A stretch of DNA of 64,000 nt from an uncultured delta proteobacterium (GCA_963735595.1 CAVTLK010000003.1:32001-96000), one strand, 5' to 3'. Shown: positions 3,966 through 58,824, counted from the stretch's first letter. The notes: generated by a model not told the origin, from the letters alone. Program-made: numbers and translations.

Positions 3966-4116
3966 GCAAAACCTCCCCACGCTCTTTTATTTGTATTGAT
4001 AAAAAGGGGTTATCTCTCTATAATTATACACGGTTCTTCTTATGGTTCAATCTAAAACAGCCGCGGGGAGTGCCGGTTACCCCTCGTCATGCACAATAAA
4101 CCGATAGGAGGTCGGC

Positions 4117-5475
4117 ATGTGTGATACCATCGTCGCAACGAAAGAGGCCACAAGAGACGGATCGGTCATTCTTGCCAAGAACAGCGACCGGGAGCCCAAC
4201 GAGGCCCAATACATTGAATATCACCCCGCCCGGGACTACGCCGCGGGTCAACAGCTGAAGGTCACCTATCTCACCATTGAGCAGGCCAGACAAACCCGCG
4301 CCGTTTTGCTCTCGCGCCCCTTCTGGATGTGGGGGGCTGAGATGGGGGCCAACGACGCCGGGGTCGCCATCGGAAACGAGGCGGTCTTCACGAAGCTCCC
4401 GATGAGGAAGGAAAAGATGCTCCTGGGTATGGACCTCCTGCGGCTTGCGCTGGAGCGCGCAACGGACGCCGAGCAGGCCCTCGACGTGATCACGAAGCTC
4501 CTGGCCAGGTACGGACAGGGGGGGCCGGCGGGATATGAGGACAAGCGGTTCGCTTACCATAATTCGTTCATCATCGCCGATCCTCAGGGGGCATGGGTGC
4601 TGGAGACGGCCGATCGGGAGTGGGCGGCAAAACGGATTACGGGCGTCTATTCAATCTCCAACGGGCTGACTATCGGCGGCGAATTCGACAAGGCGTCGGC
4701 AGCCCTGGTTTCGACAGCCGTAGAAAAGGGGTGGACTAAATCGAAGGCCGACTTCGAGTTTGCCCGCGACTATTCCGACTGGTTCTTTACGACATTTTCG
4801 ATGTGCCGCCCACGCGCGGCCCGCACTACCGAGGCCGTCTCGGGAAGGAGCGGGTCGGTGGACTGCCGGTCGATGATGGACCTCCTGCGCGACCACGGGG
4901 GAGAGGGGACCGCCCACGAACCGCACCGCGGCCTGTTTATGAACAAGGTCTGCATGCACGCCGCGAACGGCCTTTCCCGGGCCAGCCAGACGACCGGATC
5001 GCTGGTTTGCCGCCTCGGGGGGGATATCAACACCCACTGGATCACCGGAACGGCCGCGCCCTGCACCTCGGTCTTTAAGCCGTTCTTCTTCGAGGCGGCG
5101 CGATCGGCCGACGCGGGGCCCGAGCCGACGGGGACCTACAATGCGAAAAACCTCTGGTGGTCTCACGAGCGGCTTCACCGGGCGATCCTCATGGACTACC
5201 CGGCGCGGATGGGCGTTATGGCCGCGGAGCGGGACAAGCTCGAAGGACGGTTTATAACCGAGGGGAAAAAGACCGTGGCGGAGGCCGGCAAGCTTACCGG
5301 CGACGCGCGAAGGAGGCTGCTTTCAGCCTTTTCGGAAGAATGTTTTGCCGAGGCGTGGAAGGCCGAACGACAATGGACCGAGGCCGTGGCGAAAACACCG
5401 GTAAGAAAGCGGCCGTCAGCGCTCTTTCGGTCCTACTGGAACAAACAGAATAAGAAGGCGGGGCTGAGTCTATAG
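4117..5475 (+). CDS. Peptidase C69 / secernin-like Ntn-hydrolase (dipeptidase)
   Basis: N-terminal MCDT (Cys nucleophile), AKNSDREPNE, WMWGAEMGAN and YHNSFIIAD; AGGAGG RBS. Confidence 0.9.
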   Translation: MCDTIVATKEATRDGSVILAKNSDREPNEAQYIEYHPARDYAAGQQLKVTYLTIEQARQTRAVLLSRPFWMWGAEMGANDAGVAIGNEAVFTKLPMRKEKMLLGMDLLRLALERATDAEQALDVITKLLARYGQGGPAGYEDKRFAYHNSFIIADPQGAWVLETADREWAAKRITGVYSISNGLTIGGEFDKASAALVSTAVEKGWTKSKADFEFARDYSDWFFTTFSMCRPRAARTTEAVSGRSGSVDCRSMMDLLRDHGGEGTAHEPHRGLFMNKVCMHAANGLSRASQTTGSLVCRLGGDINTHWITGTAAPCTSVFKPFFFEAARSADAGPEPTGTYNAKNLWWSHERLHRAILMDYPARMGVMAAERDKLEGRFITEGKKTVAEAGKLTGDARRRLLSAFSEECFAEAWKAERQWTEAVAKTPVRKRPSALFRSYWNKQNKKAGLSL

Positions 5476-8928: not shown

Positions 8929-9663
8929 CTACGCGAAAATTTGTTTGCCCCAGACGAGGTCGAATGTGTCAATCCTGAATTGATTAAAGACCGGGACAAA
9001 TTTCTCCACGGTTGCCTTATCGGCGGTATCTTTCAGGAAGTTTATGTTGACGGCAAACGTCGGGGTTTGTACGTAACCGCTGCCGAGGCCGAAGACCGTT
9101 TTGACATCATGCCTGGATACGAAGTCCTGCGCCGCAATAATCTTCCGGTTTCTTTTGTCTACCGTTGTTTTTGCGTCGTCAACGTAAAAGACGCCGCCCG
9201 GTTTTCCGAACGCATCGGAAACGATTTCCGAGTCTGTTCTGTCTATCCAGCTCAGGTCCAATCCGAGTTCATTGAGGAGTCGAGACATCATCGGTATCTC
9301 TTCGATAAAGGCGGACGAAACCAGTGGAATACCGACGTGTCCCTTCGATGACTTCCGGCTATTCCACGCGGAGTCGGCTCCCATAGTTCCCATCAGGGTG
9401 AGTACGAGGGTGTTGTCGCTTAAAAGATTTGAAACGTGTGCTCCTTCGGCAAGGCGCTCGACGAATTGCCTGTTTTCCAGTGGAAGTTCCCGAAAGGGGA
9501 CGGTCACGAAGGTTCGTGTGAGCACGACCGAGTCCTGGAATTCACCGTAAAGGAGGGAGTTAAAGGACTGGGCGGCTTCCTCAAGAGATCGGCTCTTCTT
9601 CAGCTGTTCGGATACCTTCTTAATTAGATTCAGTACTCCCACTGGATCGTTGATTTTTGCCAT
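8929..9663 (-). CDS. Conserved hypothetical protein (stand-alone sensor/GAF-like domain)
   Basis: 244-aa ORF with GGGAGG RBS; motifs WNSRKSSKGHVGIPL, IPMMSRL and AQDFV..VKTVFGLG. Confidence 0.6.
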   Translation of the reverse strand: MAKINDPVGVLNLIKKVSEQLKKSRSLEEAAQSFNSLLYGEFQDSVVLTRTFVTVPFRELPLENRQFVERLAEGAHVSNLLSDNTLVLTLMGTMGADSAWNSRKSSKGHVGIPLVSSAFIEEIPMMSRLLNELGLDLSWIDRTDSEIVSDAFGKPGGVFYVDDAKTTVDKRNRKIIAAQDFVSRHDVKTVFGLGSGYVQTPTFAVNINFLKDTADKATVEKFVPVFNQFRIDTFDLVWGKQIFA

Positions 9664-38976: not shown

Positions 38977-39853
38977 GTGAACAATATTCGTCCAGCCATC
39001 AGAACCGAATATGAAAGGTGGCGTGGTATTGTTGGTGAAGAAGAGCCATATCGGGGAGAATATGTTCTGGGAATAGAGAAGTCATAAAGGCTCATTTTCT
39101 CATAGCGGACTTTTTCGCGGACCAGCAAGGTCAAATCGGTTTGGTTGACCCTCGAGATATTAATCTACTTCATTCAGCAGAATCCCGCCAATTCGTCCAT
39201 TAGGAGGGACTGCAAGTGGAAACGGAATCGGAGTGATTGCCACGGCCCTCTACGGGCTTATTAAAAACCATCCATTTAATGATGGGAATAAAAGAACAGC
39301 GCTGCTTTCTGCACTTCATCATATACTAAAGTGCAATCTAACCCCGACAGTAAAACAAGTTGAATTCGAAAGGATTACTCTATCGGTTGCAGAAGGTTCG
39401 TTGGGTAAATATCGGCAATTCAAAGACGACACAAAGCGAGGAAAGTCAGATGCTGAGGTATTACTCCTTGCTAATTTTTTCAGACGATCAACTAGACAAG
39501 TTGATAAACGGTTCTATGCTATTACTTTTAATGACCTACAGACTATTCTAAATCGCCATGGATTTTACTTAGAGAATCCTCACGATAACCATATAGATGT
39601 TGTTAGATACGAGAATAGGATAGTCTTCAGGCCTTTTCCGAGGAAAGATAGAAGACCTTTTAAGGTCGCACGAAATCGGGTTTCCCAACTGGAAATCACA
39701 GTAGGTCAGGGGGCGATTAGTACGGTTCGTAAAGAAACAGGACTCACGCCTGAGAGGGGGTTTGACTCGCAAACGTTTTTCCGTGGCGTAGATGATTTAC
39801 AGGCGCTGATTGATAAATATAGTGGACCGCTCTCCCGACTCAAGGACAAGTAG
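38977..39853 (+). CDS. Doc-type Fic-family protein with a C-terminal extension; frameshifted 5' part
   Basis: NHPFNDGNKRTA; upstream frames give HFLIADFF and RDINLLHSA. Confidence 0.8.
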
Positions 39854-39930
39854 TGCTAATCTTAGTTGTTGCTAAAATCATGAAGAAGTAGTAAGGCTTT
39901 ACTTAAAAAGGGCATACGACAGAATATACC

Positions 39931-41371
39931 ATGGCGTTTTCGTTTTCTATGTTACCTGTAGCAGCAAAACAGGTTGTCAAGAGGAAGTTCAGCGACTTCT
40001 CGTTCTATACTCATCTTTTCCTTATGACAGGAGCCATCGGACTATTTCTGACTGGGGTTTTTGTATTTTTCTGTATCGTAACTAACCTTTTCACGGTGGC
40101 CATGGGCGCCGGGTCAGGCGTAAGACTCGAGGTAATAGTAAAAATACTTGCTTCCTTCGATAGAGCGTTGGTTTTCGTAGTGCTGATGGGTGTCGCGCTA
40201 TTTACGCTTTTCCTGATACTTCTGCTGCTTAGGTTATTTGAAGTATTCTCTGAGCTCCTTATCGGCGGACTGGCGACAAATTTCAATTACAAATTATGGT
40301 GTGATCACTGCGAATACGAAGCTAATACCGAGATCAAAAGAAAAGAGATTACGAATCGAATCGTCAAAGTCCTTTTTTACAGCAGCTCCATCTTTGCAGT
40401 AATGTTATTTGCCTTTATGAATAGTCACTTATTCAGTAATGGTAATACTGCTGAAATTCGAGGACTAATATACAATGGCAACCTTCATGAATATGTTGTT
40501 ACAATGATATATATTTTCCCGGTTATAGTTACGATTTCTATAACGACAATTTCGGCTTACGATTTCCTAACAAAATACATCCTTTTTAGGAAAAGCAAAA
40601 CTAAGAAAACCGATAGGTACTTCCTGTTTGGAGACGTAAGAATGAAGGAGAATTCCTACTATATTTTCTTGTCTGCGGTGATGATTCCTTTTTTCTTCTT
40701 TTGGGGACTGAACCTTATTAGTTACGTGCTCAGTTCTTTGTTTGAGATCCTACACAATAACATGTTTCAGATATACGTTATTGAAATATTACAGGAGAAT
40801 CCGTCTATATTAGGAGCACTTGATATAAGATACTCAATCCTACATAATACTTTAATGGCCTTTTCCAATAAGGAACTCGCTTTTTCGTTTAACATCGAAC
40901 CAGGAGATGCACAGCTAGTCCTCGACACAATGATTAGGACGGGGATGTTCATAATCCCAATCGTGGGGTATCTTCAGCATTATGGCACCATTGTTAATGG
41001 TCTATAAAGGAAAAGCCCTCACGTGGTTTATAGTACCGAGTATTACCAGTCTGGCATTAATGTATGCGGCTCTTTTTTACTTCAATAGGATTCTGGGCAT
41101 TGAAAGAACTGTATTTATCCTCTTATTAATGGCTATAATAGAGATCGTAATACATTACACTTACAGGATAAAAAATGAAAGAATTGACTGTAGGGAATTG
41201 GCTAAGATTCTGGGCGTCAATTATAATGGAGCGTTCCTTAAAAAGCTGGATGCAATAGAGAAGCTCCCGTACCAGTTTTCCGATCGAAAGAAAATGTTCT
41301 TTAGGGAGGAGGTCATAGATTTCTTCTATCAAAACAGAGGCGAATTGAAACGGTTAAAAAAAGAAGACTAG
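39931..41371 (+). CDS. Multi-TM membrane protein with C-terminal HTH-like domain (ORFs 39931-41007 and 40982-41371 are probably one frameshifted gene)
   Basis: The joined product is colinear with the intact paralog at 41479-42612. Confidence 0.65.
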
Positions 41372-41478
41372 CGATATTATAGACTATGGTATAAGAGTAT
41401 CGGTAAATCAGTTCTGACGTTCAGTTTTAAATAACATGTTGTCTATCAAACACGGAGTGTATTCCGCAAAAAATTAGT

Positions 41479-42612
41479 ATGTTGGAGGTAGAAATGCTTG
41501 ACGATTATTTTAGGAAATCTATTCGAAAAGCAGTTAGCAACTGGAAAGGCCAAACTCGTAGGATTGTAAAATTCCTGATAGTAATTACTTCGATAGCAGC
41601 AATCTTTTTAGTCCTCGTTGCCCCTCTTCGGCTTGGTATACTCTTTTTACTAGGCGTGGCTCTAATTGTTATAGGGATTGGATCATTGTGGCTGTTACTT
41701 ACTAACATAACGCTTGAGCTAATAGGGGTTTTTGCAAGCAAGGGTAATACAAAACTATGGGTTGAACACGAGGAATTTATAAGTAGTATTGAGGCAAAGG
41801 AAAAAGGAAATATGAAATATGCCTATCTTACAGGTATCTTTCTATTCCTGTTAGTATTAGCCCTGATACTGGTCAATATGAAGTTCTTTGACAAGATTTT
41901 TGAAGCAATGGTCGTCTCGATTATGCCGATTGGTATTGGTATCATTGCTATCCAACATATGGTTCTTCTATACTCGAAGTATAAGGAATGTAATTCTTCG
42001 GAAGAAAGCAAGTATTTTTTATTCGGTGATGTAAGTATAAAGGCAAACACATATAAACTCGTGATGTATTCAATTTACATACCGCTCCTATTCTGCTCGG
42101 GACTTGCCTTGGTGCTGGTACTGGTTAAGATTATGTTCGGTTCAAAGGCGATACTCATTGCCACACCTGTGGTTTCAATGGTGAGAGATAGTATCCTGAA
42201 AAGCCTTATTTACGTAATTCCAATTCTAGGTTTGGCGACTACAATATTCCCTTTGCTTGTTGTTTATCAGCAGAAAAGCTTTTCGCTTTTCTTTATACCT
42301 GGATTACTGAGTTTCGTTGCCAGTGAGTCAGCTATAGCCTATTTTACTCGAGTTTTGAAAACAGAATACAGTGTACTGCTATTTCTAGTTCTTCTTATTA
42401 CCGGAGTTATGGTTAATCATCTTTTATTTCGAGATAAAGTAGTAGCAGATGTTGAGGATCTTGCAGTCAGGTTGAAGATCCCTTACAATGAAGAGTTTAA
42501 AAGGAGTATTAGCGCTTTAAAAGGATTACCAGCCTTAAAGGTTAGGGGAAAAAAACTGTACGTGGTAGAGGAAGTTAAAGAATACTTCCTTAAACATGAT
42601 ATTGTACTATAA
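41479..42612 (+). CDS. Paralogous multi-TM membrane protein with C-terminal HTH-like domain
   Basis: Shares KLW..H, YFLFGDV..K.N.Y and the LA..L...LP......K.....EEV...F tail with the upstream gene. Confidence 0.7.
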   Translation: MLEVEMLDDYFRKSIRKAVSNWKGQTRRIVKFLIVITSIAAIFLVLVAPLRLGILFLLGVALIVIGIGSLWLLLTNITLELIGVFASKGNTKLWVEHEEFISSIEAKEKGNMKYAYLTGIFLFLLVLALILVNMKFFDKIFEAMVVSIMPIGIGIIAIQHMVLLYSKYKECNSSEESKYFLFGDVSIKANTYKLVMYSIYIPLLFCSGLALVLVLVKIMFGSKAILIATPVVSMVRDSILKSLIYVIPILGLATTIFPLLVVYQQKSFSLFFIPGLLSFVASESAIAYFTRVLKTEYSVLLFLVLLITGVMVNHLLFRDKVVADVEDLAVRLKIPYNEEFKRSISALKGLPALKVRGKKLYVVEEVKEYFLKHDIVL

Positions 42613-44136: not shown

Positions 44137-44292
44137 GCAGACCTCCCAAGGGCGTGGTTCCGGGCGGATCGGGGGTTAGCCCCCGCCGGGTATCGCCATA
44201 GTGATAGATAATCCAGCCGGGCGAAAAAGTCAAGGATTGATTTACGGGACGTACGGCGGGGACAGATCCCCGGCATGCGGGCGGGAAAAGTA

Positions 44293-44326
44293 AAAAAGCG
44301 GGATAGTCCGACGGACTATCCCGCTT
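44293..44326 (-). terminator. Intrinsic terminator ending the barrel array
   Basis: AAGCGGGATAGTCC-gac-GGACTATCCCGCTT, with a T-run on the minus strand. Confidence 0.8.
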
Positions 44327-44358: not shown

Positions 44359-45210
44359 CTAATTCTTGCTCATCGGCTCTAACTTGGGCTCGATGACCGG
44401 TGCGGGCGCGGGCGCGGGAGCTACCGGCTTCGCGCAGATGTCGAACATATAGCCGATGCCGCCTTCGATGCCCCAGCCGCCGCCGAAGTTCGTCCGGCCC
44501 TCGACGTTCAGGTAGAGCCGGTCGGTAATCTGGTGGTCGAGGCCGACGAACATGTAGACCGGGTCATCCATGTGGAAACTCGCATCCCATGCGTTAGCGG
44601 GGAGGCCCACCTGGGCCCAATCGGAGCTCGCCCGCAGCCAGGTATAGTCCACGCCGATATAGGGGGTCAGGCCGGTGTCGCCGATGTGCCAGCCGGCGTG
44701 CAGCTCCGGGGTCAAACGGTAGACGTTCATATAGACGTCAAATGACCTAAACCAGACACCTGCAATGTATTGATCCATTTCGAAGTCGCGTGAGAACGAA
44801 TGGGTAAAGAGGGCGCCGCCGCCGACGTAGAAACCGTTATCTGCCCGGAAGAACGTCGCTTTAACGCCGAGGCCCCACATGAACATCGGGACCCAGCCGT
44901 CCGTCTCTACATCGATTCCGGCAAAACTACTATCCATGGCGAGGCTCTGTCCGCCAACAAGCCCAACGAGATCTACGTTGTTTAAGATACCCCAGTTGAC
45001 CTGTGCGTAGTAGCTGTGGGTGTTGACGTCCCAATCCCTCCAACCACTCATGGAACGCTCGACCGTGTCCCAATCAGTAGCGGAGTACCCGTAGCGGAGC
45101 TGGGGCAGCAGCTTGCCGCCGCCGACGGTGTCGCTCCCCTCGCCGGCGAACGCCGTCAGCGAGAAAGCCAGCAGGAGAGAAAGGGCCAAGAGCAGTGATC
45201 TCTTGAACAT
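44359..45210 (-). CDS. Outer-membrane beta-barrel protein, array copy 1
   Basis: Signal peptide ending AFA, about 10 amphipathic strands, terminal strand GIGYMF and a Cys/Pro tail. Confidence 0.85.
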   Translation of the reverse strand: MFKRSLLLALSLLLAFSLTAFAGEGSDTVGGGKLLPQLRYGYSATDWDTVERSMSGWRDWDVNTHSYYAQVNWGILNNVDLVGLVGGQSLAMDSSFAGIDVETDGWVPMFMWGLGVKATFFRADNGFYVGGGALFTHSFSRDFEMDQYIAGVWFRSFDVYMNVYRLTPELHAGWHIGDTGLTPYIGVDYTWLRASSDWAQVGLPANAWDASFHMDDPVYMFVGLDHQITDRLYLNVEGRTNFGGGWGIEGGIGYMFDICAKPVAPAPAPAPVIEPKLEPMSKN

Positions 45211-45409
45211 AAGTACTTACCTCCCGTGAGTTATGGACATTGCTGCAATATTTTATGTTTATTATGCAAATATTGTCAAGCAGAAAATTAGAGCGCCCTA
45301 ATAGTCTTCTTTGAGGGACGTTAATCGGGTAACGGGGTTTTCAGGGGATAAAGAAGGGGACGATCCGCGGGACCGTCCCCTTTGTGCCCTTATGAAAAAT
45401 GCACAGGAC

Positions 45410-46258
45410 TTAGTTCTTGCTCATCGGCTCTAACTTGGGCTCGATGACCGGTGCGGGCGCGGGGGCGGGAGCTACCGGTTTCGCGCAGATATCGAACATA
45501 TAGCCGATGCCGCCTTCGATGCCCCAGCCGCCGCCGAAGTTCGTGCGGCCTTCCATGTTCAGGTAGAGCCTGTCGGTGATGTAGTGGTCGAGACCGACAA
45601 ACATGTAGACCGGGCTGTCGAGGTGATAGTCAATCTCCCCTTGGTTAGCCGGGTCGCCTATTTCGACCCACTCGGAGTTTGCCCTCAGCATCGTATAGTC
45701 CACGCCGATATAGGGGGTCAGGCCCGTGTCACCGATATGCCAGCCGGCATGAAGCTCGGGGGTTAACCGGTAGACGTTCAAATCGACGTCAAATACGTTA
45801 ATCAGGACACCTGCGGCAGTATATTGACCAACTTCGAAGTCGCGTGAGAACGTATGGGTAAAGAGGGCGCCGCCGCCGACATAGAACCCGTTATCGGCCC
45901 GGAAGAACGTCCCCTTGACACCCAACCCCCACATAAACATCGGCGTCCAGTCGGACTCGGCGTAAGCGCCAGGTCTGTCGGTTTCTATGAAAAGGCTCTG
46001 TCCTCCGACAATTCCGATGAGGTCTATGTTGTTAAGGATGCCCCAGTTGAGCTGGGCGTAGTAGCTGTGAGCGTCGAGGTCCCAATCCCTAACACTGGTA
46101 AAATCGGAGGCCGTCTCCCAGTCCGAAGCGGAGTACCCATAGCGGAGCTGGGGCAGGAGCTTACCGCCGCCGACGGTGTCGCTCCCCTCGCCGGCAAACG
46201 CCGAGAACGACCAAACCAGCAGGAACGATAGGGCCAGGAACAGTGATTTCTTGAGCAT
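45410..46258 (-). CDS. Outer-membrane beta-barrel protein, array copy 2
   Basis: Same architecture as copy 1; GGGAGG RBS before ATG at 46258. Confidence 0.85.
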   Translation of the reverse strand: MLKKSLFLALSFLLVWSFSAFAGEGSDTVGGGKLLPQLRYGYSASDWETASDFTSVRDWDLDAHSYYAQLNWGILNNIDLIGIVGGQSLFIETDRPGAYAESDWTPMFMWGLGVKGTFFRADNGFYVGGGALFTHTFSRDFEVGQYTAAGVLINVFDVDLNVYRLTPELHAGWHIGDTGLTPYIGVDYTMLRANSEWVEIGDPANQGEIDYHLDSPVYMFVGLDHYITDRLYLNMEGRTNFGGGWGIEGGIGYMFDICAKPVAPAPAPAPVIEPKLEPMSKN

Positions 46259-46447
46259 GGTCTTACCTCCCGTGAATAATGGACATAACTGCAATATTTT
46301 ATGTTTATTATGCAAGTATTGTCAAGCAAAAAAATTAGAGCACTTTAATGACTTCTGAGCCGGTACGTGCCCGTTTTCAGGACATAAAAAAAGGGGACGA
46401 TCCACGGGATCGTCCCCTTGTAATACACTAAGCGATATGTGCAGGAC

Positions 46448-47287
46448 TTAGTTCTTGCTCATCGGCTCCAGCTTGGGCTCGATGACCGGCGCGGGTGCGG
46501 GTGCGGGCGCTACCGGCTTTGCGCAGATATCGAACATATAGCCGATGCCGCCTTCGATGCCCCAGCCTTCATGGAAGTTCGTGCGGCCCTCGAAGTTCAA
46601 ATAGAGCCGGTCATTGATGTAGTGATCGAGACCGGCGAACATGAAGACCGGGTCGTTCATGCGGAGGTTAATGTCGCCAATACCGTCGATCTCGGCAACG
46701 GCCCTCGACGCGACGTAATCCACGCCGATGTAGGGGGTCAGGCCGGTGTCACCGATGTGCCAGCCGGCGTGTAGCTCGGGGACCAGCATATAGACGTCCA
46801 GCGTGGTATTATAGTCTCCTGCGAAGACACCGTTAAAGTATGTGTCTAGGTCAAAATCACCCGAGAATGAATGGGTAAAGAGTGCGCCGCCACCGACGTA
46901 GAACCCGTTATCTGCCCGGAAGAACGTCGCTTTAACGCCCAACCCCCACATGAACATCGGGACATCGCCCTCTGCTTCCCAGTAGTCGGGTCCGATCGTA
47001 TAATCGCTCTCCATGGTGAGGCTCCGCCCGCCGACAATCCCTATGAGGTCGACGTTGTTGAGGATACCCCAATTGAGCTGGGCGTAATAGGTGTGGGCGT
47101 TGATATCCCAGCACCGGAATCCGGCAACGTCGGCCGAGCTGGTCTTCCACTCCGTCCCGGAGTACCCGTAGCGGAGCTGGGGCAGCAGCTTGCCTCCCCC
47201 GACTGTGTCGCTCCCCTCGCCGGCGAACGACGCCAGCGAGAAAACCAGCAGGAGCGAAAGGGCCAAGAACAGAGATTTCTTGAACAT
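46448..47287 (-). CDS. Outer-membrane beta-barrel protein, array copy 3
   Basis: Same architecture; intact reading frame. Confidence 0.85.
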   Translation of the reverse strand: MFKKSLFLALSLLLVFSLASFAGEGSDTVGGGKLLPQLRYGYSGTEWKTSSADVAGFRCWDINAHTYYAQLNWGILNNVDLIGIVGGRSLTMESDYTIGPDYWEAEGDVPMFMWGLGVKATFFRADNGFYVGGGALFTHSFSGDFDLDTYFNGVFAGDYNTTLDVYMLVPELHAGWHIGDTGLTPYIGVDYVASRAVAEIDGIGDINLRMNDPVFMFAGLDHYINDRLYLNFEGRTNFHEGWGIEGGIGYMFDICAKPVAPAPAPAPVIEPKLEPMSKN

Positions 47288-47482
47288 TGTCTTACCTCCT
47301 CTGATCAATAAGCAAAGCTACTATATACTATATTCGAATAATGCGCTAAGTCAAGTTAAAATTAGAGCGCCCTAATAGATCGGTTATGTACTAATCTATG
47401 TACGTAGGGTGTTCGTCGGGACATAAAAAGGGGACGATCCATAAGACCGTCCCCTTATGTACATAAGAGATATGATCAGGTT

Positions 47483-48337
47483 TTAGTTCTTGCTCATCGG
47501 CTCTAACTTGGGCTCAATGACCGGTACGGGAGCGGGTGCGGGAGCTACAGGTTTCGCGCAGATATCAAACATATATCCGATGCCGCCTTCAATGCCCCAG
47601 CCGTCGTTGAAGTTCGTACGGCCCTCGAAGTTCAGGTAGAGCCGGTCGGTGACCTGGTGGTCCAGGCCGACGAACATGTAGACCGGGTCGTCCATGTGGT
47701 ACTTAATCTCGCCGGTGCCGGTGGTGAGCGGGAATGTCTGACGGTACTCAGACATAGCCTTTGACCAGGTATAATCCACGCCGATATAGGGGGTCAGGCC
47801 GGTATCGCCGATGTGCCAGCCGGCGTGGAGCTCCGGGATCAAACGGTAGATATCAGTCGTAACGTCCCATCCGACAGTTAAGACGCCCCCGGTATAGACA
47901 TCGACATCATAATTGTTTGAGAACGAGTGGGTGAAGAGGGCACCGCCGCCGACGTAGAGCCCGTTGTCGGCCCGGAAGAACGTCGCCTTGACGCCGATGC
48001 CCCACATGAACATCTCCGCCCAGCCGTCGGATTCAATCGTAGTTGCCCCGACGCTTGTCTCTGTCGAGAGGCTCCGTCCGCCGACGACCCCGATGAGGTC
48101 AACGTTGTTCAGGATGCCCCAGTTAAGCTGGGCGTAGTAGTCATGGGCGCTGAAATCCCAGTCAAAGTATGGAGTGGTGAAATTCGATTTCGTGTCCCAT
48201 TCCGTGACGGAATACCCGTAGCGGAGCTGGGGCAGCAGCTTGCCGCCGCCGACCGTGTCGCTCCCTTCGCCGGCAAAGGCCGAGAAAGAAACTAACAGCA
48301 GGAGCGAAAGGGCCAAGAACAGTGATTTCTTGAGCAT
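47483..48337 (-). CDS. Outer-membrane beta-barrel protein, array copy 4
   Basis: Same architecture; intact reading frame. Confidence 0.85.
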   Translation of the reverse strand: MLKKSLFLALSLLLLVSFSAFAGEGSDTVGGGKLLPQLRYGYSVTEWDTKSNFTTPYFDWDFSAHDYYAQLNWGILNNVDLIGVVGGRSLSTETSVGATTIESDGWAEMFMWGIGVKATFFRADNGLYVGGGALFTHSFSNNYDVDVYTGGVLTVGWDVTTDIYRLIPELHAGWHIGDTGLTPYIGVDYTWSKAMSEYRQTFPLTTGTGEIKYHMDDPVYMFVGLDHQVTDRLYLNFEGRTNFNDGWGIEGGIGYMFDICAKPVAPAPAPVPVIEPKLEPMSKN

Positions 48338-48533
48338 GATCTTACCTCCCGTGAATAAATAGCATGTTGGGTATATTCTACGTTTATACCGTAAGTATTG
48401 TCAACTAAATATTAGAGCGCCCTAATAGTCTTCTTTGAGGGACGTTAATCGGGTAACGGGGTTTTCCGGGGATAAAGAAGGGGACGACCCCACGGATCGT
48501 CCCCTTTGTGTCCTTATGTAAAATACTCAGGAC

Positions 48534-49384
48534 TTAGTTCTTGCTCATCGGCTCAAGCTTGGGCTCGATGACCGGTGCGGGAGCGGGTGCGGGAGCCACC
48601 GGCTTCGCGCAGATGTCGAACATATAGCCGATGCCGGTTTCTATGCCCCAACCGTCGACGAAGTTCGTCCGGCCTTCCACGTTGATGTAGATCTTATCCA
48701 TCAGGAAATAATCAACGCCGGCAAACATCATGAAGGGATTCTGCATTCGGTACTCGGTTTCTCCGTCACCCTCAACCTCGGTAAGCGCCCTTGACCAGGT
48801 ATAATCCGCGCCGATGTAGGGCGTCAGGCCGATCTTCTTGATGTTCCAGCCGACGTGGAGCTCGGGGGTCAGCCGGTAGACGGACCGCTCATATATGCTG
48901 GGAGACTCGCCCAAGAGCACGCCGTTAAAATAGAGCTTGAGGCTGTAATCGCGCGAGAACGAGTGGGTGAAGAGCGCGCCGCCGCCGATATAGAGGCCGT
49001 TTTCGGCTCGATAGAACGTCCCCTTGACGCCCAATCCCCACAGGAACATCGGTACCGTATCGGTCTTCATGCCCATGTTTAACAGGCCGGGAATGATATC
49101 GAAATCGCTCTCCGAAGAGACGCTCCGTCCGCCGACGAGCGGCGATAAGGTCGACGTTGTTAAGGATGCCCCAGTTGACCTGGGCGTAGTAGTTGTGCGC
49201 ATTGACGTCCCACTCGGTAAAGAGCGTCGCCTCGTTGGTTACCCAGTCGGTGGACGGAGTATCCATAGCGGAGCTGGGGCAGCAGCTTGCCGCCGCCGAC
49301 GGTGTCGCTCCCTTCGCCGGCAAATGCCGAGAACGAGATGACCAACAGGAGCGAAAGGGCCAGGAACAGTGATTTTTTAAGCAT
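48534..49384 (-). CDS. Outer-membrane beta-barrel protein, array copy 5 (frameshifted)
   Basis: Three overlapping ORF pieces reconstruct a full paralog. Confidence 0.8.
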
Positions 49385-49570
49385 GTTCTTTTCTCCCCAT
49401 AAATAATACAAAAAATTTCGTATATTCTATGTTTATTACGCAAGCAGTGTCAAGAAGAAACTTAAAAGTATTCTAATGACTCCTTAGCCGGTATGTGCCC
49501 ATTTTCAGGACAAAAAAGGGGACGATCCACGGGACCGTCCCCTTATGTACATAAGAGATATGATCAGGTT

Positions 49571-50423
49571 TTAGTTCTTGCTCATCGGCTCTAGCTTGGG
49601 CTCAATGACCGGTGCGGGAGCGGGTGCGGGAGCTACAGGCTTCGCGCAGAGGTCAAACATATAGCCGATGCCGCTCTCGATGCCCCAGCCGTCGTCAAAG
49701 TTGGTCCGGCCTTCAACGTTCAGGTAGAGCCTGTCGTTGATAAAGTGGTCGAGACCGACGAACACGTAGACCGGGTCGTCTAGGTGATAATCAACCTCGC
49801 CAGTTGGCTGGGTTGCCCACTGGTCCAATCGGTGTTCGCTCGCAGCCAGGTATAGTCCACGCCAATGTACGGGGTCAGACCGGTGTCGCCGATGTGCCAG
49901 CCGACGTGGAGCTCGGGGGTGAGGCGGTAAACGCTCATTTCGACGTCAAATTCGTTAATGAGCACGCCTGCGTTATCAAAGTGCTCAATAACGAGGTCGT
50001 TCCGAACGAATGGGTGAAGAGGGCGCCGCCGCCGACGTATAACCCGTTGTCGGCGCGGAAGAACGTCGCCCTAACGCCGAGGCCCCACATGAACATCGGC
50101 CCCCAGTCGGACTCAATGGATTCACCGTCGAAAGGCTCATCACTTTCCATCATGAGGCTTTGTCCGCCGACAAGCCCGACGAGTTCAACGTTCTCAAGGA
50201 CGCCCCAGTTGAGCTGGGCGTAGTAGCTGTGGGTGTTGACGTCCCAATCCCTGAAACCAGCTACATCAGCAGAGACCGTACGCCAATCCGAAACCGTATA
50301 CCCGTAGCGGAGCTGTGGCAAAAGCTTGCCGCCACCGACCGTGTCGCTCCCCTCGCCGGCAAACGCCGAGAACGAGACTACCAGCAGGAGCGAAAGGGCC
50401 AAGAACAAAGATTTCTTGAGCAT
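49571..50423 (-). CDS. Outer-membrane beta-barrel protein, array copy 6 (frameshifted)
   Basis: ORF pieces 49935-50423, 49780-49965 and 49571-49828. Confidence 0.8.
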
Positions 50424-50621
50424 AATTCTACCTCTTTTAATTGGTGGAGATAATAGTTATATCTTATGTTTATAATATAGCCAATGTCAAGTGAAAATTA
50501 GAATAGTCTAATAACTTCCCGTACCGGGCGATTAGCCGGTTGCCAGGCCTTTCCCGGGGATAAAAAAGGGGGCGATCTCTGGGATCGTCCCCTTGTAATA
50601 CCTGGGCGATATGTGCAGCGC

Positions 50622-51463
50622 TTAGTTCTTGCTCATCGGCTCTAACTTGGGCTCGATGACCGGCGCGGGGGCGGGTGCCGGAGCGGGCGCCGGTTTTGCG
50701 CAGATGTCAAACATATATCCGAAACCGGCTTCTACGCCCCAGCCGTCGACGAAGTTTGTACGGCCTTCCACGTTAAGGTAGAGCTTGTCGTTCAACAGGT
50801 AGTCGACGCCGACGAACATGAAGAACGGGTTCTCGAGGCGATTCACGATCTTGCCACCGCCTTCGATTTCGGCAACTGCCCTCGACCAGGTATAATCGAC
50901 GCCGAGGTACGGGGTCAGGCCGGTATCCTTGATATGCCAGCCGACATGAATTTCGGGGGTCAGCATATAGGCGCTCAGGGTGGCACGATACTCGGCGACG
51001 AGCACGCCGTCTTCGTAGTCTTGAGATCGAAATCGTTTGAGAACGAGTGAGTGAAGAGCACGCCGCCGCCGACGTATAATCCGTTGTCGGCCCGGAAGAA
51101 CGTCGCCTTGAAACCGAGTCCCCACAGAAACATCGGTACGGAACCGGCCTTGAACTCCTCAGAGAAACGATCCTAATAGTCACTCTCCGCGGAGACACTC
51201 CGTCCACCGACGATCGCAATGAGGTCAAGGTTGTTTAAAACGCCCCAGTTGAGCTGGGCATAGTAGTTATGGGCTGTGATGTCCCAGTCCTCGAAGTCCG
51301 TAGCGGCGCTCGAATGGGTCTCCCAGTCGGAGACGGAATACCCGTAGCGGAGCTGGGGTAGCAGCTTACCGCCGCCGACGGTGTCGCTTCCCTCGCCGGC
51401 GAACGCGGAAAGCGAGAAGACGAGCATCAGGGCGAGAGTTACCAGAAGTGATTTCCTGATCAT
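50622..51463 (-). CDS. Outer-membrane beta-barrel protein, array copy 7 (frameshifted)
   Basis: ORF pieces 51173-51463 and 50622-51125 with conserved termini. Confidence 0.8.
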
Positions 51464-51711
51464 AGTCGTTCCTTCCTGATGGTGGTTGAAGTTGATACTT
51501 TGAATATTGTATTTTAAGAATTGTACCCTGTCAAGGAGAAATTAGGCAATCTTAATAAAAGATCGGGATGCCTGACCGGCCGGCGCTTCGTTCATCCTTA
51601 TATCGGCAGGGAAATGGGGATGGCTGAACGCCGAAGGAGGTCAGTTACCCGATAGAAAAAACGGGACGATCCTATGATCCTCCCTGGGTATCTAAGCGAA
51701 AAAATCAGCTT

Positions 51712-53400
51712 TTAGTTCTTGCTCATGGGCTCGAGCTTGGGCTCGATGACCGGCGCGGGAGCGGGCGCAGGAGCCGGCTTTTCGCAGATGTCAAAGAGGT
51801 ATCCGAATCCGGCGGATACGCCCCAGCGGTTGAGCATATTGCCTTCGACGTTGAAGTAGAGGCGGTCGTTGACGTAATAGTCGACGCCGGCAAAGATGCC
51901 GAACGAATCTTTCTGGTCGAAGTTGAGATCGATGTCGGCGTCAAGGGGGATAACTCTGGCCGATGTCGTAGCTTGCCTCGGCCCAGGCCCAGCGGTACTC
52001 AACGCCGAGGTAGGGGGTCAGGCCGATATCCTTGAAGTGCCAGCCGGCGTGGATATCCGGGGTGAGGGTGATCATCCTGGTGCTGATCTTGGTCGGGAAG
52101 CCCGCGATGATGGGTGCGATGTCAGCGCCGCCGACGGTTCCGCTGATCTTGAGGGTCTTGTCGTCCCGAAGGAATGGGTGAAGAGCAGCCCGCCGCCGAT
52201 ATAGAACCCGTTATCGCCGCGGAAGAAGGTCGCCTTCACACCCAGGCCGTAGAGGAAGCTGGCGGAGCTGTCGTACTTGGCGTTGATATTGATGCCGCCT
52301 AATAGCGGCGTATGTAAGGACGTCGGCGTCAAGGGACTCGAACCGCGCGCCCACGAGGCCGTAGATATCGATGTTGGGATGAACGCCCCAGTTGAGCTGC
52401 GCGTAGACGTCGTGCATGGTCAGGTCATAGCTGCCGGCGTCGAGCAAGCGGGAAGTTGGTTGAGAGCTCCGTTGACATGTACGAGTAGCGAAGCTGGGGC
52501 AGGAGACGGCAGTCACCGACGGTATCGCTACCGGCGCCGCCGCCGCCCAGGAACGGCGAGTTCATCGGCCGATCTCGACGTCCCGTTGATGTCAAAGAGG
52601 TAGCCCACGCTTGCGCTCACGCCCCAGCGGTTCAGCATATTGCCTTCGACGTTGAAGTAGAGGTGGTCGGTGACGTAATAGTCGACGCCGGCGAAGATGC
52701 CGATACGAGTCTTTCTGTTCCAGGTTGAGATCGATATCGCCGTCAAGGGGGATAACTGCTGGCCGATGTCGTAGCTCGCCTTGGCCCACGCCCAGCGGTA
52801 CTCGACGCCGATGTAGGGGGTCAGGTCGATGTTCTTGAAGTGCCAGCCGGCGTGGATATCCGGGGTGAGGGTGATCATGCTGGTGCTTGAGCTTGCCGGC
52901 CGAGAGGCTGAACGGACCGCCGCCGACGGTCCCGTCGATATTGAGGGACTGCTCGCCGCCGAAGGAATGGGTGAAGAGCAACGCCGCCGCCGATGTAGAA
53001 CCCGTTATCGTTACGGAAGAAGGTCGCCTTTACGCCCAGGCCGTAGAGGAAGTTGGCGGAGTAGTCGTAGTCCGCGTTGATGTTGATGCCCGCAAGCGGG
53101 ATGTCCAGGACGTCGCCGTGCAGCGCGTCAAAACGTGCACCGGCCAGCCCGATGAGGTCGATGTTGGGATGCACGCCCCAGTTGAGCTGCGCGTACACGT
53201 CGTGTGTCGGTCAGGTTATAGGTGCCGGAATTAAGAAGCGGGAAGTTAGTTGCACGAGCTTCGTATTGCATGTACGAGTAGCGAAGCTCGGGCCGGAGCT
53301 TCCCGTCACCGACGGTGTCGCTGCCTTCGCCGGCGAATACGGACGCCGCCAGGAGCAGGGTAAGCCCCAAGGCTAACGTGAGAAACAAGGATCTCTTCAT
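51712..53400 (-). CDS. Array copy 8: apparent tandem double beta-barrel protein (frameshifted)
   Basis: One signal peptide (53400), two barrel domains joined at about 52530-52590, and one tail (51712). Confidence 0.65.
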
Positions 53401-53942
53401 CTTTTACCTCCATGCTTGATGACAAGCGATTCTCATCCGTGAATATATAAACGGTTGAGTACATTAAATAGCGAACGAAATAGAGTAGAATTATAGCAGT
53501 CTAATGTTTCATGTCAACCAAAAAAGGACTATCTGCTGAAAAGAAATCGTGTATAAAGTGAGTTAAAACAATATAATAGGAATAGCTGCATTAAATTGAA
53601 CCATGCGTGCAACTTTACATGATAGCGGCAGTATTTGCATATGCGAATATTCGCACGGTCCGGTAAACTCCCACTCGCCCAACGGTTCCGTATATCAGGA
53701 GAGCGCCCCCAGCCCACCAGGAGGCCACCTGCCGTAAACCGTCAGATCAGTACGTAAGGCGTTTACAAACCGCCCCCACTAATGACCTCCGGGGGCGTGA
53801 TATTAAGTGAATATTGTTAAATCAGCTTAACAATGTAAGCATGGTCACTCCTCCTTCCCGAATAAAGGGTGATATAATATGGTTATATCTGAAAACCGTA
53901 ATCAAGGATTCAGCGACCTTCACTGAAAAGGAGTCTGCTACC

Positions 53943-55682
53943 ATGAAACGAATCTTTCTTGCCGTGTTTGGTTTCCTTCTTTCGTTCGCGTTATTGGTCA
54001 CTTACGGGTGGGCTGCCGAGTGGGCTCCCCGCAATAAGGTCGTGTTCTATCAGGACTACGGATGCGATACGGGCAACGATCTTGAACTCGGTGCAGGCAG
54101 CTACCCGGATTTGCGCGACTATCGGACGGGAGGGTCCGGTGGACAGAACTGGAACGATCAAATCTCGTCCATGGTGATCGGGGCGAGCGTAACCACGGTA
54201 ATCGTCTATGAACATATCAATTACGGAGGCAGGAGCAAGGAGTTCACCAGGTCATGGAAAAAGCACAACGAAGACTGCAACACAATGGACGAGTGGTGGA
54301 ATGACAAGATCAGCTCCGTCAAGATCATCGGACCGGGATCCTCCTCTCCGTGGGACGAACCCGTTACCCGCGACAAGGCCGTTTTCTACCAGGACGGCGG
54401 ATGTGACGGCGGCAATTACGTTGAGCTTGAAGAGGGGGAATACGCGGACCTGCGAGAGCTCAGGGTAAAGGGATCGGGCAGTTCCACCTGGAACGACCGG
54501 ATCTCGTGTATGGTAATCGGATCGGGTATCTCCAAGGTGATCGTCTATGAGCACGTCAACTTCGGTGGGAGGAGCAGCGTATTCACCCGATCGGGAGGGG
54601 GGTCGGACTCAATCCAGAATATTATGGGCGGCTGGTGGGACGACAAGATCAGCTCAATCAAGGTCATCGGTACGGGATCGTCCTCTCCGTGGGATGCACC
54701 CGTTACCCGCGATAGGGCCGTGTTCTACCAGGACGGCGGGTGCGACGGCGGCAATTACGTTGAGCTTGAAGAGGGGGAATACGCGGACCTGCGCAAGCTT
54801 AAAGTAAAGGGATCGGGCAGTTCCACCTGGAACGACCGGATCTCGTGCATGGTAATCGGATCGGGTATCTCCAAGGTGATCGTCTACGAGCACGTCAACT
54901 TCGAGGGGAGGAGCAGCGTATTCACCCGATCGGGGTGGACGGACTCAATCCAAAATATTGAGGGTGGTTGGTGGGATGACAAGATCAGCTCAATCAAGGT
55001 CATCGGTACGGAATCTTCCAAACCGTGGAAGAAGCCGATCGCACGGGACAAGGCCGTGTTCTACCAGGACGATAAATGCGAAGGAGGCACCTACGTGGAG
55101 CTGAGAGAAGGGGAATACCCGGATCTCCGTGAGCTCAGGGTAAAGGGATCGGGCAGCGACACCTGGAACGATCGAATCTCTTGCATAACGATCGGGTCAG
55201 AGATCTCCCAGGTTATAATCTATCAACACCCGAACTTCGAGGGGAAGGGCAAGGTCCTCACGCGGTCAAGCGGCGAACCAGACGTAAGTTGGAGCCTTCT
55301 GGGCGGATGGAGTTATAAAAAGATATCTTCGATCAAGGTAATCGGCTCAGGATCGGGGACGCCGCGGGACGAACCGGCCCCGCGCAATAGAGCCGTGTTC
55401 TACCAGGACAACTGCGGCAGCGGGGACCGTATAGAACTGGCAAAAGGCGAATACCCGGATTTACGCGAGTTTGCGGTAAAGGGCTCGAGCAGCGCCACCT
55501 GGAACGACCGAATCTCATGCATAACTATCGGGCTGGGGATAAACAAGGTAACCGTCTATGAACACCCGAATTTTGAGGGGAAGAGCAGGGAGTTCACGCG
55601 GCCGTGGGGCGGCTCGGACACAAACTGGAGCCTCTCAGGCCTGTGGTGCAACGACAAGGTCACTTCGCTCAAGGTTCAGTAG
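53943..55682 (+). CDS. Secreted protein with five beta/gamma-crystallin domains
   Basis: Signal peptide; five ~110-aa repeats VFYQD..C...WNDRISC...VYEH.NF.G...W(D/N)DKISSIKV; AAGGAG RBS. Confidence 0.88.
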   Translation: MKRIFLAVFGFLLSFALLVTYGWAAEWAPRNKVVFYQDYGCDTGNDLELGAGSYPDLRDYRTGGSGGQNWNDQISSMVIGASVTTVIVYEHINYGGRSKEFTRSWKKHNEDCNTMDEWWNDKISSVKIIGPGSSSPWDEPVTRDKAVFYQDGGCDGGNYVELEEGEYADLRELRVKGSGSSTWNDRISCMVIGSGISKVIVYEHVNFGGRSSVFTRSGGGSDSIQNIMGGWWDDKISSIKVIGTGSSSPWDAPVTRDRAVFYQDGGCDGGNYVELEEGEYADLRKLKVKGSGSSTWNDRISCMVIGSGISKVIVYEHVNFEGRSSVFTRSGWTDSIQNIEGGWWDDKISSIKVIGTESSKPWKKPIARDKAVFYQDDKCEGGTYVELREGEYPDLRELRVKGSGSDTWNDRISCITIGSEISQVIIYQHPNFEGKGKVLTRSSGEPDVSWSLLGGWSYKKISSIKVIGSGSGTPRDEPAPRNRAVFYQDNCGSGDRIELAKGEYPDLREFAVKGSSSATWNDRISCITIGLGINKVTVYEHPNFEGKSREFTRPWGGSDTNWSLSGLWCNDKVTSLKVQ

Positions 55683-56726: not shown

Positions 56727-57359
56727 AAAGGGGGCAGTTGGTCCGGGTTTGTCTCGTATGCGATTTCGTGGAAATATCATTCCTCAAAAAGTGATATCAT
56801 GAACGTAACCGCGAAACGCTGCGCCCGGGCAATACCTTTTACCATGGGATGAGCAGTGAGACAGGGCCCCTTTTTCCAATTTTCAATGCGTTGTTTTTCA
56901 GACGGTCATATCAGCAGGGAATGGCTGAAAGAATGTATTTTTTACGTGAACGCCTTCTTCGAGTATTATACCTGGGTGGAGTTGATCCTCGGTTTTGTCC
57001 TCCCCTTTTCGGCCATCATTTTTCTGGTACTCATCCTTATCCTTTTGATACGACAGTCACCGTCAAAGTCAGGGGAGGGCCAATAGAAAAAGTGGGCGGC
57101 CCTCCGCAATAACGGGTCGAGCGTCGCGTCCGTTGTTCGCCGTGTTTGGCCGCAGGCAAGAAATCAACTCTATCGCCGGCCTGCCTTCCCTTCTTCTTTT
57201 CACTTGCCTTTGATTTTGAAATCCGATACACTGGCCGCATTCCGATCCAACGCGGCTGGCGGGGGAGGGGCCGTCCGGTCGCTCACTTCATGCTTGTCAT
57301 TTTAGAATCTCTCAGATCACCCTCCGCGTTCTTACCACCCTATATCATGGAGCACTCGT

Positions 57360-58824
57360 ATGGTTGATCTCGACGTAAAACTTCCCGTCGGAAGGATGAT
57401 GCTGGGCTACGTTATCATCATCGCCCTTCTGGTGCTGGTAACCGTGGCGACCCATTTTGTCCCCGCGGGCCTCTATGACCGGGTCGAGAAGGTTAATCCC
57501 GAGACCGGCACAACGATGAACGTGATCGTCCCGGACAGTTTCGCCTATGTCACGCCCAACCCGCAGGGGGTGGTTGACCTGCTGATCTCCCCTATCAAGT
57601 CTCTCTACGTACAAGGGGCCGATCGCCGCGATCATCGTTGTCTTCATCATCCTCATCGGCGGCTCGTTTATGGCGATGCGCCGAACGGGGGCGCTGGACG
57701 CCGGGGTGCTGCGGTTTATTAAGAAGTTCGAGGGGAGGGAAAAATACGTCATCCCGGCCCTGATGATATTCTTTTCCCTGTTCGGAGCGCTCTTCGGCAT
57801 CCTCGAGGAGCTGACGCCGTTTATCATCATCGTTGTGCCGATGGCCATCGCCATGGGGTACGATTCGATCGTCGGGCTCATGCTGATATTCGGGGCGTGC
57901 GGCGTCGGGTTTACGGCGGCTATCACAAACCCGTTTACCGTCGGGATCGCCCAGAGGATCGCGGAGATCCCCCTCTTTTCAGGGGCGACCTACCGGATGC
58001 TGGTCTGGGTCGTGATGATGACGATCGCCGTAGGATACACCGCGTGGTACGGCGCCCGGGTACGAAAAGACCCGTCAAAGAGCCTCGTGGCCGATTTCGA
58101 CGCCTCGGTCCGCAAGGAGTTCGTAGAGATCGAAAAGGAGTTTTCCGATTTCACGCCGGCGCACCGGCGGGTCGTCTGGATGATCGGCACACTGGTTGCC
58201 TTTCTTTTCGTCGGGCTGATCGTTGGGCAGCTGGCCGCGCCCAAGGTCATGGCCGACATAAGCCTGCCGTTCGTCGTCCTCATATTCGTCGTCATGGGCG
58301 TTGCCTCGGGGCTCCTGGGAGGGCTCGGCGCCTGGGGGACTCTCAAGGCCTTTGTCAAGGGATTCATCACGTTTATTCCCGCCGGTCTCTTCATCATGCT
58401 GGCGCGGGCCGTTATCGTCATCGCCGACGAGGGAAAGATCATCGATACGATTCTTTTTTGGTTATCGGGGTTCATCGCGCAATTTCACGTGGTGTTCGCC
58501 TCCTGGGCGATGCTGCTGGTGCAGACGATTATCAACTTTTTCCTCTCGTCCGGCTCGGCCCAGGCGATGGTAACGATCCCGGTAATGGTGCCGCTCGGAG
58601 AGCTGGTCGGCATCACGCGGCAGGTGACGGTCCTGGCCTTCCAGATGGGAGATGGATTCTCCAATATCTTCTGGCCGACCAATCCCCTCCTGATTGTCGC
58701 CGTGTCGCTGGCCGGCATCACCTGGACCAAGTGGGCGCGTTTCATGCTGCCGCTGCAGATAATGCTGCTTACGGCGGGCTTCCTGATGCTGACGATTGCG
58801 GTGCTCATCGGGTGGGGGCCGTAG
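57360..58824 (+). CDS. YfcC-family transporter; frameshift near 57617
   Basis: VPAGLYDR, GYDSIVG, NPFTVGIAQRIAE.PLFSG, SGSAQA and AFQMGDGFSN. Confidence 0.88.

Follow-up and report, generated by a model that had tools for sequence, protein, structure and literature searches.

A tandem array of predicted ten-stranded outer-membrane barrels with variable loops and apparent remote homology to chlamydial MOMP

Introduction

MOMP is the main chlamydial antigen, and excerpts of the Waddlia paper (PMC2878342) describe it as confined to chlamydiae, the MOMP-like family being considered there as restricted to Chlamydiaceae and Waddliaceae. According to passages of PMC13254160, MOMP is trimeric and ten-stranded and has a stopper at the N-terminus; it can neither act as a porin nor pass sugars. 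The intracellular chlamydiae Waddlia and Simkania carry multi-copy MOMP-like barrel expansions (11 and 35, respectively), and the Waddlia proteins contain 13-19 cysteines (excerpts of PMC2878342 and PMC3561449). In the host-associated pathogen Ehrlichia, the OMP-1/P28 family consists of tandem paralogous outer-membrane genes with species-specific gain and loss and with shown porin activity (excerpts of PMC7789307). Here we describe a tandem array of eight genes for outer-membrane barrels, located at 44359-53400 of a 64,000-nucleotide (nt) window (the whole stretch of DNA analysed, G000:C3:32001-96000). By analogy, the array may work like the Ehrlichia and Waddlia/Simkania expansions, and its sequences point to a relationship with MOMP.

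The genome under study, G000, is assigned by sequence to a genus of the Ca. Zymogenaceae (Desulfobacterota), and a protein identical to a gene of the congeneric genome G001 carries the label Ca. Zymogenaceae. Two further congeneric genomes, G002 and G003, were compared. The class is described as fermentative and from anoxic habitats in excerpts of 10.1101/2021.03.22.436540, and the host organism is likely a free-living anaerobe. Our literature searches found no description of this array or barrel family. The available passages on Zymogenia make no mention of porin, their outer-membrane passages concerning another class, and nothing on non-chlamydial MOMP surfaced among the papers listed on MOMP homologs and Omnitrophota.

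Results and discussion

Organization and authenticity of the array

The initial annotation had counted eight co-oriented paralogs with nine barrel domains, and this count was confirmed on the minus strand. The copy letters A-I run from gene 1 to the last gene. Gene 1 is a double barrel, in which units A and B are joined via a Gly-rich linker, and unit B has neither a promoter nor a signal peptide of its own. Intact double-barrel homologues of 518-573 amino acids (aa) exist, including P0102, P0103 and a 534-aa protein of G001. In a low-confidence model of a double barrel (predicted local distance difference test, pLDDT, 68), the strand pattern appears two times. The open reading frames (ORFs) of F, G, H and I are intact and those of gene 1, C, D and E are frameshifted, a point that the initial annotation had not mentioned. 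Contig C2 of G000 holds two further paralogues. The array genes are as follows.

51712-53400, minus strand: gene 1, double barrel, frameshifted in the assembly; unit A at 53400-~52575, followed by the Gly-rich linker and, at ~52535-51712, by unit B with the tail
50622-51463, minus strand: copy C, single barrel, 3 indels
49571-50423, minus strand: copy D, single barrel, 2 indels
48534-49384, minus strand: copy E, single barrel, 2 indels
47483-48337, minus strand: copy F, intact, 284 aa, used for the model with 10 strands
46448-47287, minus strand: copy G, intact, 279 aa
45410-46258, minus strand: copy H, intact, 282 aa
44359-45210, minus strand: copy I, intact, 283 aa

Such a pattern might result from a misassembly of strain alleles, which the initial annotation had raised, or from neutral duplication debris; the assembly is indel-prone, and in G001 the array is fragmented, split across contig ends. 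However, the independent genome G003 has an array at the syntenic locus (11 genes, 12 units), likewise beginning with a double barrel, and three short metagenome contigs carry adjacent copies. In the constant regions, the G000 copies differ from one another at 30-53% of synonymous sites, above the 13.6% between G000 and G003 orthologues (31 flank ORF pairs), and the ratio of nonsynonymous to synonymous rates (omega) of these regions is 0.045. These results indicate that the array is not a misassembly of strain alleles, and an origin by misassembly or as debris is largely refuted and extremely unlikely.

According to a frameshift-aware alignment, units A-E contain at least 14 indels of 1-2 nt; another can be seen at the A/B linker. 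No detected break lies in a run longer than 3 nt. Among control ORF matches genome-wide, 66 of 268 are broken (0.33 breaks per kb, a count that includes shadow ORFs). In G003, 33 breaks are spread over 9 of the 12 units, on different copies than in G000, and each non-array paralogue has 2 more. The frameshifts are probably assembly errors.

Predicted fold

The AlphaFold model of copy F, built on an 88-sequence alignment, has ten strands with pLDDT 94 (76 for residues 1-10), and supports the roughly ten-stranded barrel proposed earlier. Both termini of such barrels are periplasmic. The four variable segments are therefore predicted to be extracellular hairpins between strands 1-2, 3-4, 5-6 and 7-8, so that the model topology supports an outward rather than a periplasmic position. 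The corresponding parts of copy F are as follows.

48242-48271, minus strand: invariant mature N-terminus (GEGSDTVGGG), a putative lumen stopper as in MOMP
48146-48208, minus strand: variable extracellular hairpin L1, at the position of the first insert of MOMP
48011-48076, minus strand: variable extracellular hairpin L2, with a positively selected tip
47846-47923, minus strand: variable extracellular hairpin L3
47684-47770, minus strand: variable extracellular hairpin L4

The best structural matches are 10-stranded barrels: TMB10 with Z 18.2 (root-mean-square deviation, rmsd, 2.1, 138 aligned), OpcA with Z 15.3 (rmsd 4.3, 197 aligned), Legionella porin I with Z 15.0 (rmsd 4.7, 211 aligned) and OmpT with Z 14.6 (rmsd 3.8, 218 aligned). 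The OmpT-like barrels (OmpT, Pla, OpcA) and the Legionella Dot/Icm porin I (9NH1) share the strand number and the long extracellular hairpins (Z 14-15). However, they are only 9-13% identical, and no secretion-system context was seen around the array. No omptin model is among the family matches listed for the array copies and homologues, and the similarity observed is one of fold, at 10-13% identity.

When barrel positions of the seven single-barrel copies were assigned by hand as inward or outward from strand alternation, 36 of 46 lumen-facing, 25 of 48 lipid-facing and 43 of 58 periplasmic positions were invariant. For extracellular positions the count was 11 of 97, and for loop tips 1 of 52. 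The described variation of the four inter-strand segments is thus concentrated outside. The same annotation had called the N-terminus and the periplasmic turns nearly invariant. The sequence GEGSDTVGGGKLLPQLRYGY is indeed identical across all seven single-barrel copies. For the two periplasmic-turn motifs, near-invariance is seen among D, F, G, H and I, and drift in C and E. Compared with F, the closest outside protein (P0001) has differences at 26 of 98 loop columns and at 6 of 165 other columns. The extracellular parts are acidic (16-22 Asp/Glu) and aromatic-rich.

Relationship to chlamydial MOMP

No Pfam or NCBIfam model scored above its cut-off for the array copies or the 88 family members. 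The Pfam model Chlam_OMP (PF01308) matched neither the four intact copies nor any other protein of G000, and the family profile alone does not retrieve MOMP; homology to MOMP is therefore transitive. In a language-model atlas, a Chlam_OMP cluster is among the near matches. A full hidden Markov model search gave 330 proteins at E<=0.001. Among 115 distant homologues scanned, at least 51 match PF01308 at E<=0.01 in collinear positions, as counted by hand from the top five families shown per protein; the generic OMP_b-brl model matches more of the distant homologues than Chlam_OMP does. A profile of 13 family and 109 distant sequences, the members of which were not selected on a PF01308 match, retrieved MOMP 9OQ7 at E 9e-28, the next match being OmpA at 1e-6. 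With a 23-sequence subset chosen mostly for PF01308 matches, MOMP was retrieved at 4e-37. In hhalign, the family and this MOMP-like profile were aligned at 99.9% over 249 collinear columns. The four insert regions of MOMP fall into the same four gaps as the variable segments of the array, and the invariant GEGSDT segment aligns with the N-terminal stopper of MOMP. MOMP 9OQ7 is not among the listed matches of the three fold searches, and the entry may postdate the structure library.

On this profile evidence, the array family is assigned as a remote, collinear homologue of MOMP at the superfamily level; it stands outside the MOMP family itself, and no curated family includes it. The earlier statement that no described family has this architecture thus stands as far as the Pfam and NCBIfam cut-offs are concerned, and falls in that MOMP has the same 10-strand layout with four variable domains in matching inter-strand positions. 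A conserved TPYIGV-type strand is also common to both. In contrast, the array barrel has about 235 residues versus 365 in MOMP, lacks the large cap and the Cys-rich periplasmic loop, and has 1-2 cysteines (one in most copies) versus eight. The array proteins add a periplasmic tail, and their eight tandem genes are found in a likely free-living anaerobe. The initial annotation had compared the array with Ehrlichia OMP-1/p28. The analogy of organization holds, but homology was not seen: no such Pfam or NCBIfam match was found for the array copies or the 88 family members at E<=0.1, and the array genes, unlike those of Ehrlichia, are separate predicted transcription units.

Close homologues number 99 among 2959 candidates. 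According to a single-query search, the family is present in 6 of 41 genomes, namely all four of the genus, one sister genus and one weak outside match. The array is likely a genus-specific expansion of the barrel family. The broader MOMP-like profile has matches in 59 of 301 sampled genomes of the phylum (at most 8 candidates scored per genome), mostly with one copy each. Viral contigs were also considered as a source of relatives, and none of 13 pattern matches was related.

The copies might instead be channels with partitioned substrates, as the initial annotation had suggested and as shown for Ehrlichia P28 and OMP-1F; according to excerpts of PMC7789307, the Ehrlichia tandem paralogues are porins with different rates. 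A promoter box in common with porin-like genes (see below) suits this explanation. However, it is the outer tips that vary, and the near-invariance of the lumen speaks against partitioned substrates. The N-terminus aligns with the stopper of the MOMP barrel, which cannot pass sugars, and the genome keeps two separate porin-like genes. We consider the channel explanation quite improbable.

C-terminal tail

All eight genes end with a periplasmic tail. The last strand is followed by a Cys, a Pro-Ala hinge aligned to that of OmpA, and then the tag EPKLEPMSKN. In copy F it is located as follows.

47486-47566, minus strand: periplasmic tail of F (Cys, Pro-Ala linker, EPKLEPMSKN tag)

Four barrel types carry the tag at their C-terminus: the array family, a BBP7-family type, a class of 340-400 aa and a class of roughly 600 aa. 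Every tagged ORF of sufficient length for a judgement resembles a beta-rich outer-membrane protein, with model support among the tagged classes limited to BBP7 and one weak OMP_b-brl_2 match. The tag pattern occurs in 5 of 301 phylum genomes, from two genera, and in 0 controls. A Lys is present within the last two residues of 90 of 101 family tails. Two YkuD transpeptidase matches were found in G000.

According to excerpts of PMC12274547 and PMC12729407, short Lys-ending boxes are known L,D-transpeptidase acceptors, and tethered proteins (the Lpp box, OutB, Legionella Lpg1810) have short C-terminal Lys-containing attachment boxes. The array proteins may resemble these, and they resemble OmpA in that a barrel is followed by a Pro-Ala hinge; the distant homologue P0240 carries a true OmpA domain at the tail position. 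Unlike the Lpp box, the array tag is unrelated in sequence and common to four barrel types, and its attachment is putative. The tail may tether the barrel to the cell wall.

As another cell-wall acceptor, the N-terminal Gly was considered. It was given a lower rank than the tail, since double barrels retain the segment in their second unit, without a free amino group at that place. Of the homologues for which both ends were scored (61), a Cys pair able to close the barrel is present in 36; the other 25, among them the array type, have the C-terminal Cys only. The first units of double barrels have neither Cys.

Other proteins were also noted. In G002, several predicted barrels of about 600 aa with no known family form tandem pairs and triples, all ending in EPK[LI]EPMS (L029 3355-9481, L118, L129, L132). 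The tagged class of 340-400 aa is found at G000:C2:23938-25119, L130 and L133; an N-/C-terminal Cys pair is present in two homologues and absent at both ends in G000. L067 has a YkuD L,D-transpeptidase gene some 4 kb away from a gene for an OmpA/Pal-like lipoprotein that is preceded by the box (3806-5149 and 9008-9631), and 1725-2909 encodes a secreted-looking protein with two repeated Cys/Trp-rich domains separated by a (GPI/GPV)n collagen-like linker.

Promoters and shared box

All eight genes have, on the minus strand, a promoter-like site of the form TTGAC[A/T]-16-18-TAnnnT matching at 10-12 of 12 positions; 17 sites of this pattern were found in the region versus 5.9 expected. A purine-rich ribosome site and a terminator-like hairpin are also present on all eight. 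Each gene is thus predicted to be its own transcription unit with a sigma70-type promoter-like site. The palindromic box ATTAR-N6-YTAAT lies 6-8 nt upstream of the -35 hexamer in six of the seven single-barrel promoters and is degenerate in E. In gene 1, the box overlaps the -10 hexamer, as it does in G002 and G003. The sites are as follows.

53490-53517, minus strand: promoter-like site of gene 1 (12/12 consensus, 16-nt spacer), with the box at 53490-53505 over the -10 hexamer
51506-51556, minus strand: box (51541-51556) and promoter-like site of copy C
50461-50512, minus strand: box (50497-50512) and promoter-like site of copy D
49424-49478, minus strand: degenerate box (approximate start) and promoter-like site of copy E
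48375-48426, minus strand: box (48411-48426) and promoter-like site of copy F
47325-47376, minus strand: box (47361-47376) and promoter-like site of copy G
46296-46349, minus strand: box (46334-46349) and promoter-like site of copy H
45250-45302, minus strand: box (45287-45302) and promoter-like site of copy I
44292-44326, minus strand: intrinsic-terminator-like hairpin after I
51685-51656, 50594-50562, 49544-49512, 47456-47425, 46419-46386, also after E and H, minus strand: equivalent terminator-like hairpins

In G000, the box together with a -35 hexamer occurs at 11 sites, with a spacer of 6 only, versus 0-1 in 20 local shuffles, and the box alone is weakly enriched (16 vs 5-15). Across the family genomes, 66 sites were found in 10 of 10, versus 2 in controls. 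Downstream of 23 non-array box sites examined, there are 16 porin-like genes, 3 for M23 peptidases, 1 for an LCP protein, 1 for a family barrel and 2 for an unknown protein; these labels were given by resemblance to scanned G000 proteins, and the porins match DESULF_POR1 below the cut-off. In a genus without a family match, the porin-like genes are themselves tandem, most with the box. The box appears to define a family-wide outer-membrane regulon.

The DESULF_POR1-like porin tandem arrays, most of them box-preceded, are located at L112 2392-7845, L114 3191-6551, L115 2648-6776 and L116 2983-7598 (G007, G008, G003), and represent a parallel expansion of a different barrel family. A conserved protein of 220-260 aa with no Pfam family stands behind the box in several family genomes (L071 ~1663-2410, L075, L083, L120, L121). 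Crp/Fnr-type proteins were considered as candidate regulators acting at the box. Five matches were found in G000, the best of which has a canonical CRP recognition helix.

Turnover, selection and recombination

The flanks of the array are 91-95% identical between G000 and G003, with proportions of synonymous (pS) and nonsynonymous (pN) differences of 0.136 and 0.018 for orthologues. Gene number at the locus is 8 in G000, 11 in G003 and 1 in G002, which has the double barrel only and no single-barrel copies there. In trees, the G000 and G003 copies are interleaved, and the only clear one-to-one pairs are F/g3_09 (69% loop identity) and I/g3_10 (62%), with pS 0.24-0.28. Copy number and loop alleles have therefore turned over fast between close species, and most genes have no one-to-one partner.

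Using 12 unbroken sequences, omega is 0.33 for the loops versus 0.045 for the constant regions. Model M2a was preferred over M1a on the loops (twice the log-likelihood difference, 2dL, 7.8, p about 0.02); omega was about 2.9 for 13% of sites, and one site, at the L2 tip, had a posterior above 0.9. These results are modest evidence for diversifying selection at the loop tips. Diversifying selection, which had been proposed for the whole family, is thus supported at the tips and not by the loop average.

The synonymous rate (dS) in the loops is about twice that of the constant strands, and identical tracts of 41-56 nt link copies, intergenic DNA included. Because of the lower dS in the constant strands and these tracts, homogenization of the constant parts is suggested. 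Trees from gene thirds conflict in approximately unbiased (AU) tests, in which conflicts are biased toward each partition's own tree.

These features also bear on one-at-a-time antigenic switching, in which the broken copies would be silent donors into an expressed site or would vary in phase by slippage. Four of the eight genes are frameshifted at a density above background, and the lower dS in the constant regions, the identical tracts and the conflicting gene-third trees would be expected from such exchange. However, a test of the pairwise homoplasy index (PHI) type is not significant, and no recombinase was found among the flanking ORFs scanned. The detected breaks are all short indels outside longer runs, those of G003 lie on other copies and also on non-array paralogues, and 66 of 268 control ORFs are broken genome-wide. 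Silent-cassette systems of the msp2/vls/pilS type have promoterless truncated donors and one expression site. In contrast, all eight array genes have a signal peptide, a ribosome site, a promoter-like site and a terminator-like hairpin, and the broken copies keep these signals and the boxes. Antigenic switching is an improbable explanation.

An adhesin or ligand-capture repertoire deserves more weight. Here each loop set would bind a different partner cell, surface or polymer, and diversity would add functions instead of serving to evade enemies. Adhesin-type barrels with 10 strands, for example OpcA, are among the closest folds, and excerpts of PMC13254160 discuss an adhesin role for MOMP itself. 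The acidic, aromatic-rich extracellular parts, the loop types partly kept across species and co-expression under one box would suit additive functions. On the other hand, for most copies there is no clear partner in a genome with 91-95% flank identity, single-barrel copies are missing from the locus in a congener, and the tips show signs of positive selection. We regard this repertoire as possible, though doubtful.

Proposed role

We presume, with a probability of about 0.5, that the array encodes plugged, wall-tethered, non-porin structural surface barrels, with duplication serving dosage and with loops diversified against phage or predators. A constant inside, a constant tail and strong individual promoters (predicted) point to a shared structural job; pressure from outside is suggested by the variable exterior, the instability of copy number and the selection on the tips. 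The invariant GEGSDT segment would plug the lumen from the periplasm like the stopper of MOMP, because it aligns with that stopper. The Pro-Ala linker and EPKLEPMSKN may tie the barrel to the cell wall or to a periplasmic partner, in place of the peptidoglycan-binding domain of OmpA. One dimeric regulator would place all copies in the major-porin regulon of the family, and it may act differently on gene 1, with the box over the -10, and on the others, with the box upstream of the -35. Duplication would give dosage while the exposed surface is split among several variants, and each receptor shape would therefore be diluted. Copies would be gained, lost and partly homogenized via recombination, and the frameshifts would be errors of the assembly.

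Besides the direct searches that missed MOMP and the broader reach of OMP_b-brl, several results weigh against this proposal. The terminal Lys is absent in 11 of 101 family tails. The density of indels in the array is about 6 times the genome background (0.33 per kb), and decay of some copies is possible. Some loop types persist across species (F/g3_09 and I/g3_10/g1_a), which also fits specialized binding. The PHI-type test gave p 0.21-0.60. The average loop omega is below 1. The whole-gene site test (2dL 52), which adds the L2 and L3 tips, is confounded by the lower dS in the constant regions, and the site models were run with our own likelihood implementation on 12 sequences with uncertain tip alignment.

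In a more elaborate version, which seems rather unlikely, MOMP-type barrels would form mixed oligomers with combinatorial caps, clipped to the wall by the portable tag, which the lineage would have added to four or more barrel types, and a master regulator would switch between double- and single-barrel coats. If mixed oligomers were formed, 8 copies could give 120 trimer compositions; the tag would be a new means of envelope tethering, and MOMP-style antigenic variation would have an origin that involves no host.

MOMP is described as confined to chlamydiae in the excerpts cited above; in the present phylum, the MOMP-like profile has matches in 59 of 301 sampled genomes. One likely free-living genus appears to have independently expanded a MOMP-like barrel into an array that evolves fast and is variable at the same four positions as MOMP. 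This suggests that the variable-domain design does not depend on host immunity. The array proteins may serve as harmless, smaller homologues for studying MOMP folding, and the portable tail is a candidate new way of tethering outer-membrane barrels.

Neighbouring genes

Divergent from the array, 53814-55682 (plus strand) encodes a secreted-looking protein with repeated beta/gamma-crystallin domains, and homologous repeats adjoin the G003 array. A low-GC island (37-45%) at 39233-42612 (plus strand) contains a probably frameshifted Fic/Doc gene and membrane proteins without a Pfam match, and has no matching block at the G003 locus. At 57345-58824 (plus strand), a transporter-like membrane gene is split over frames, which is likely another assembly indel.

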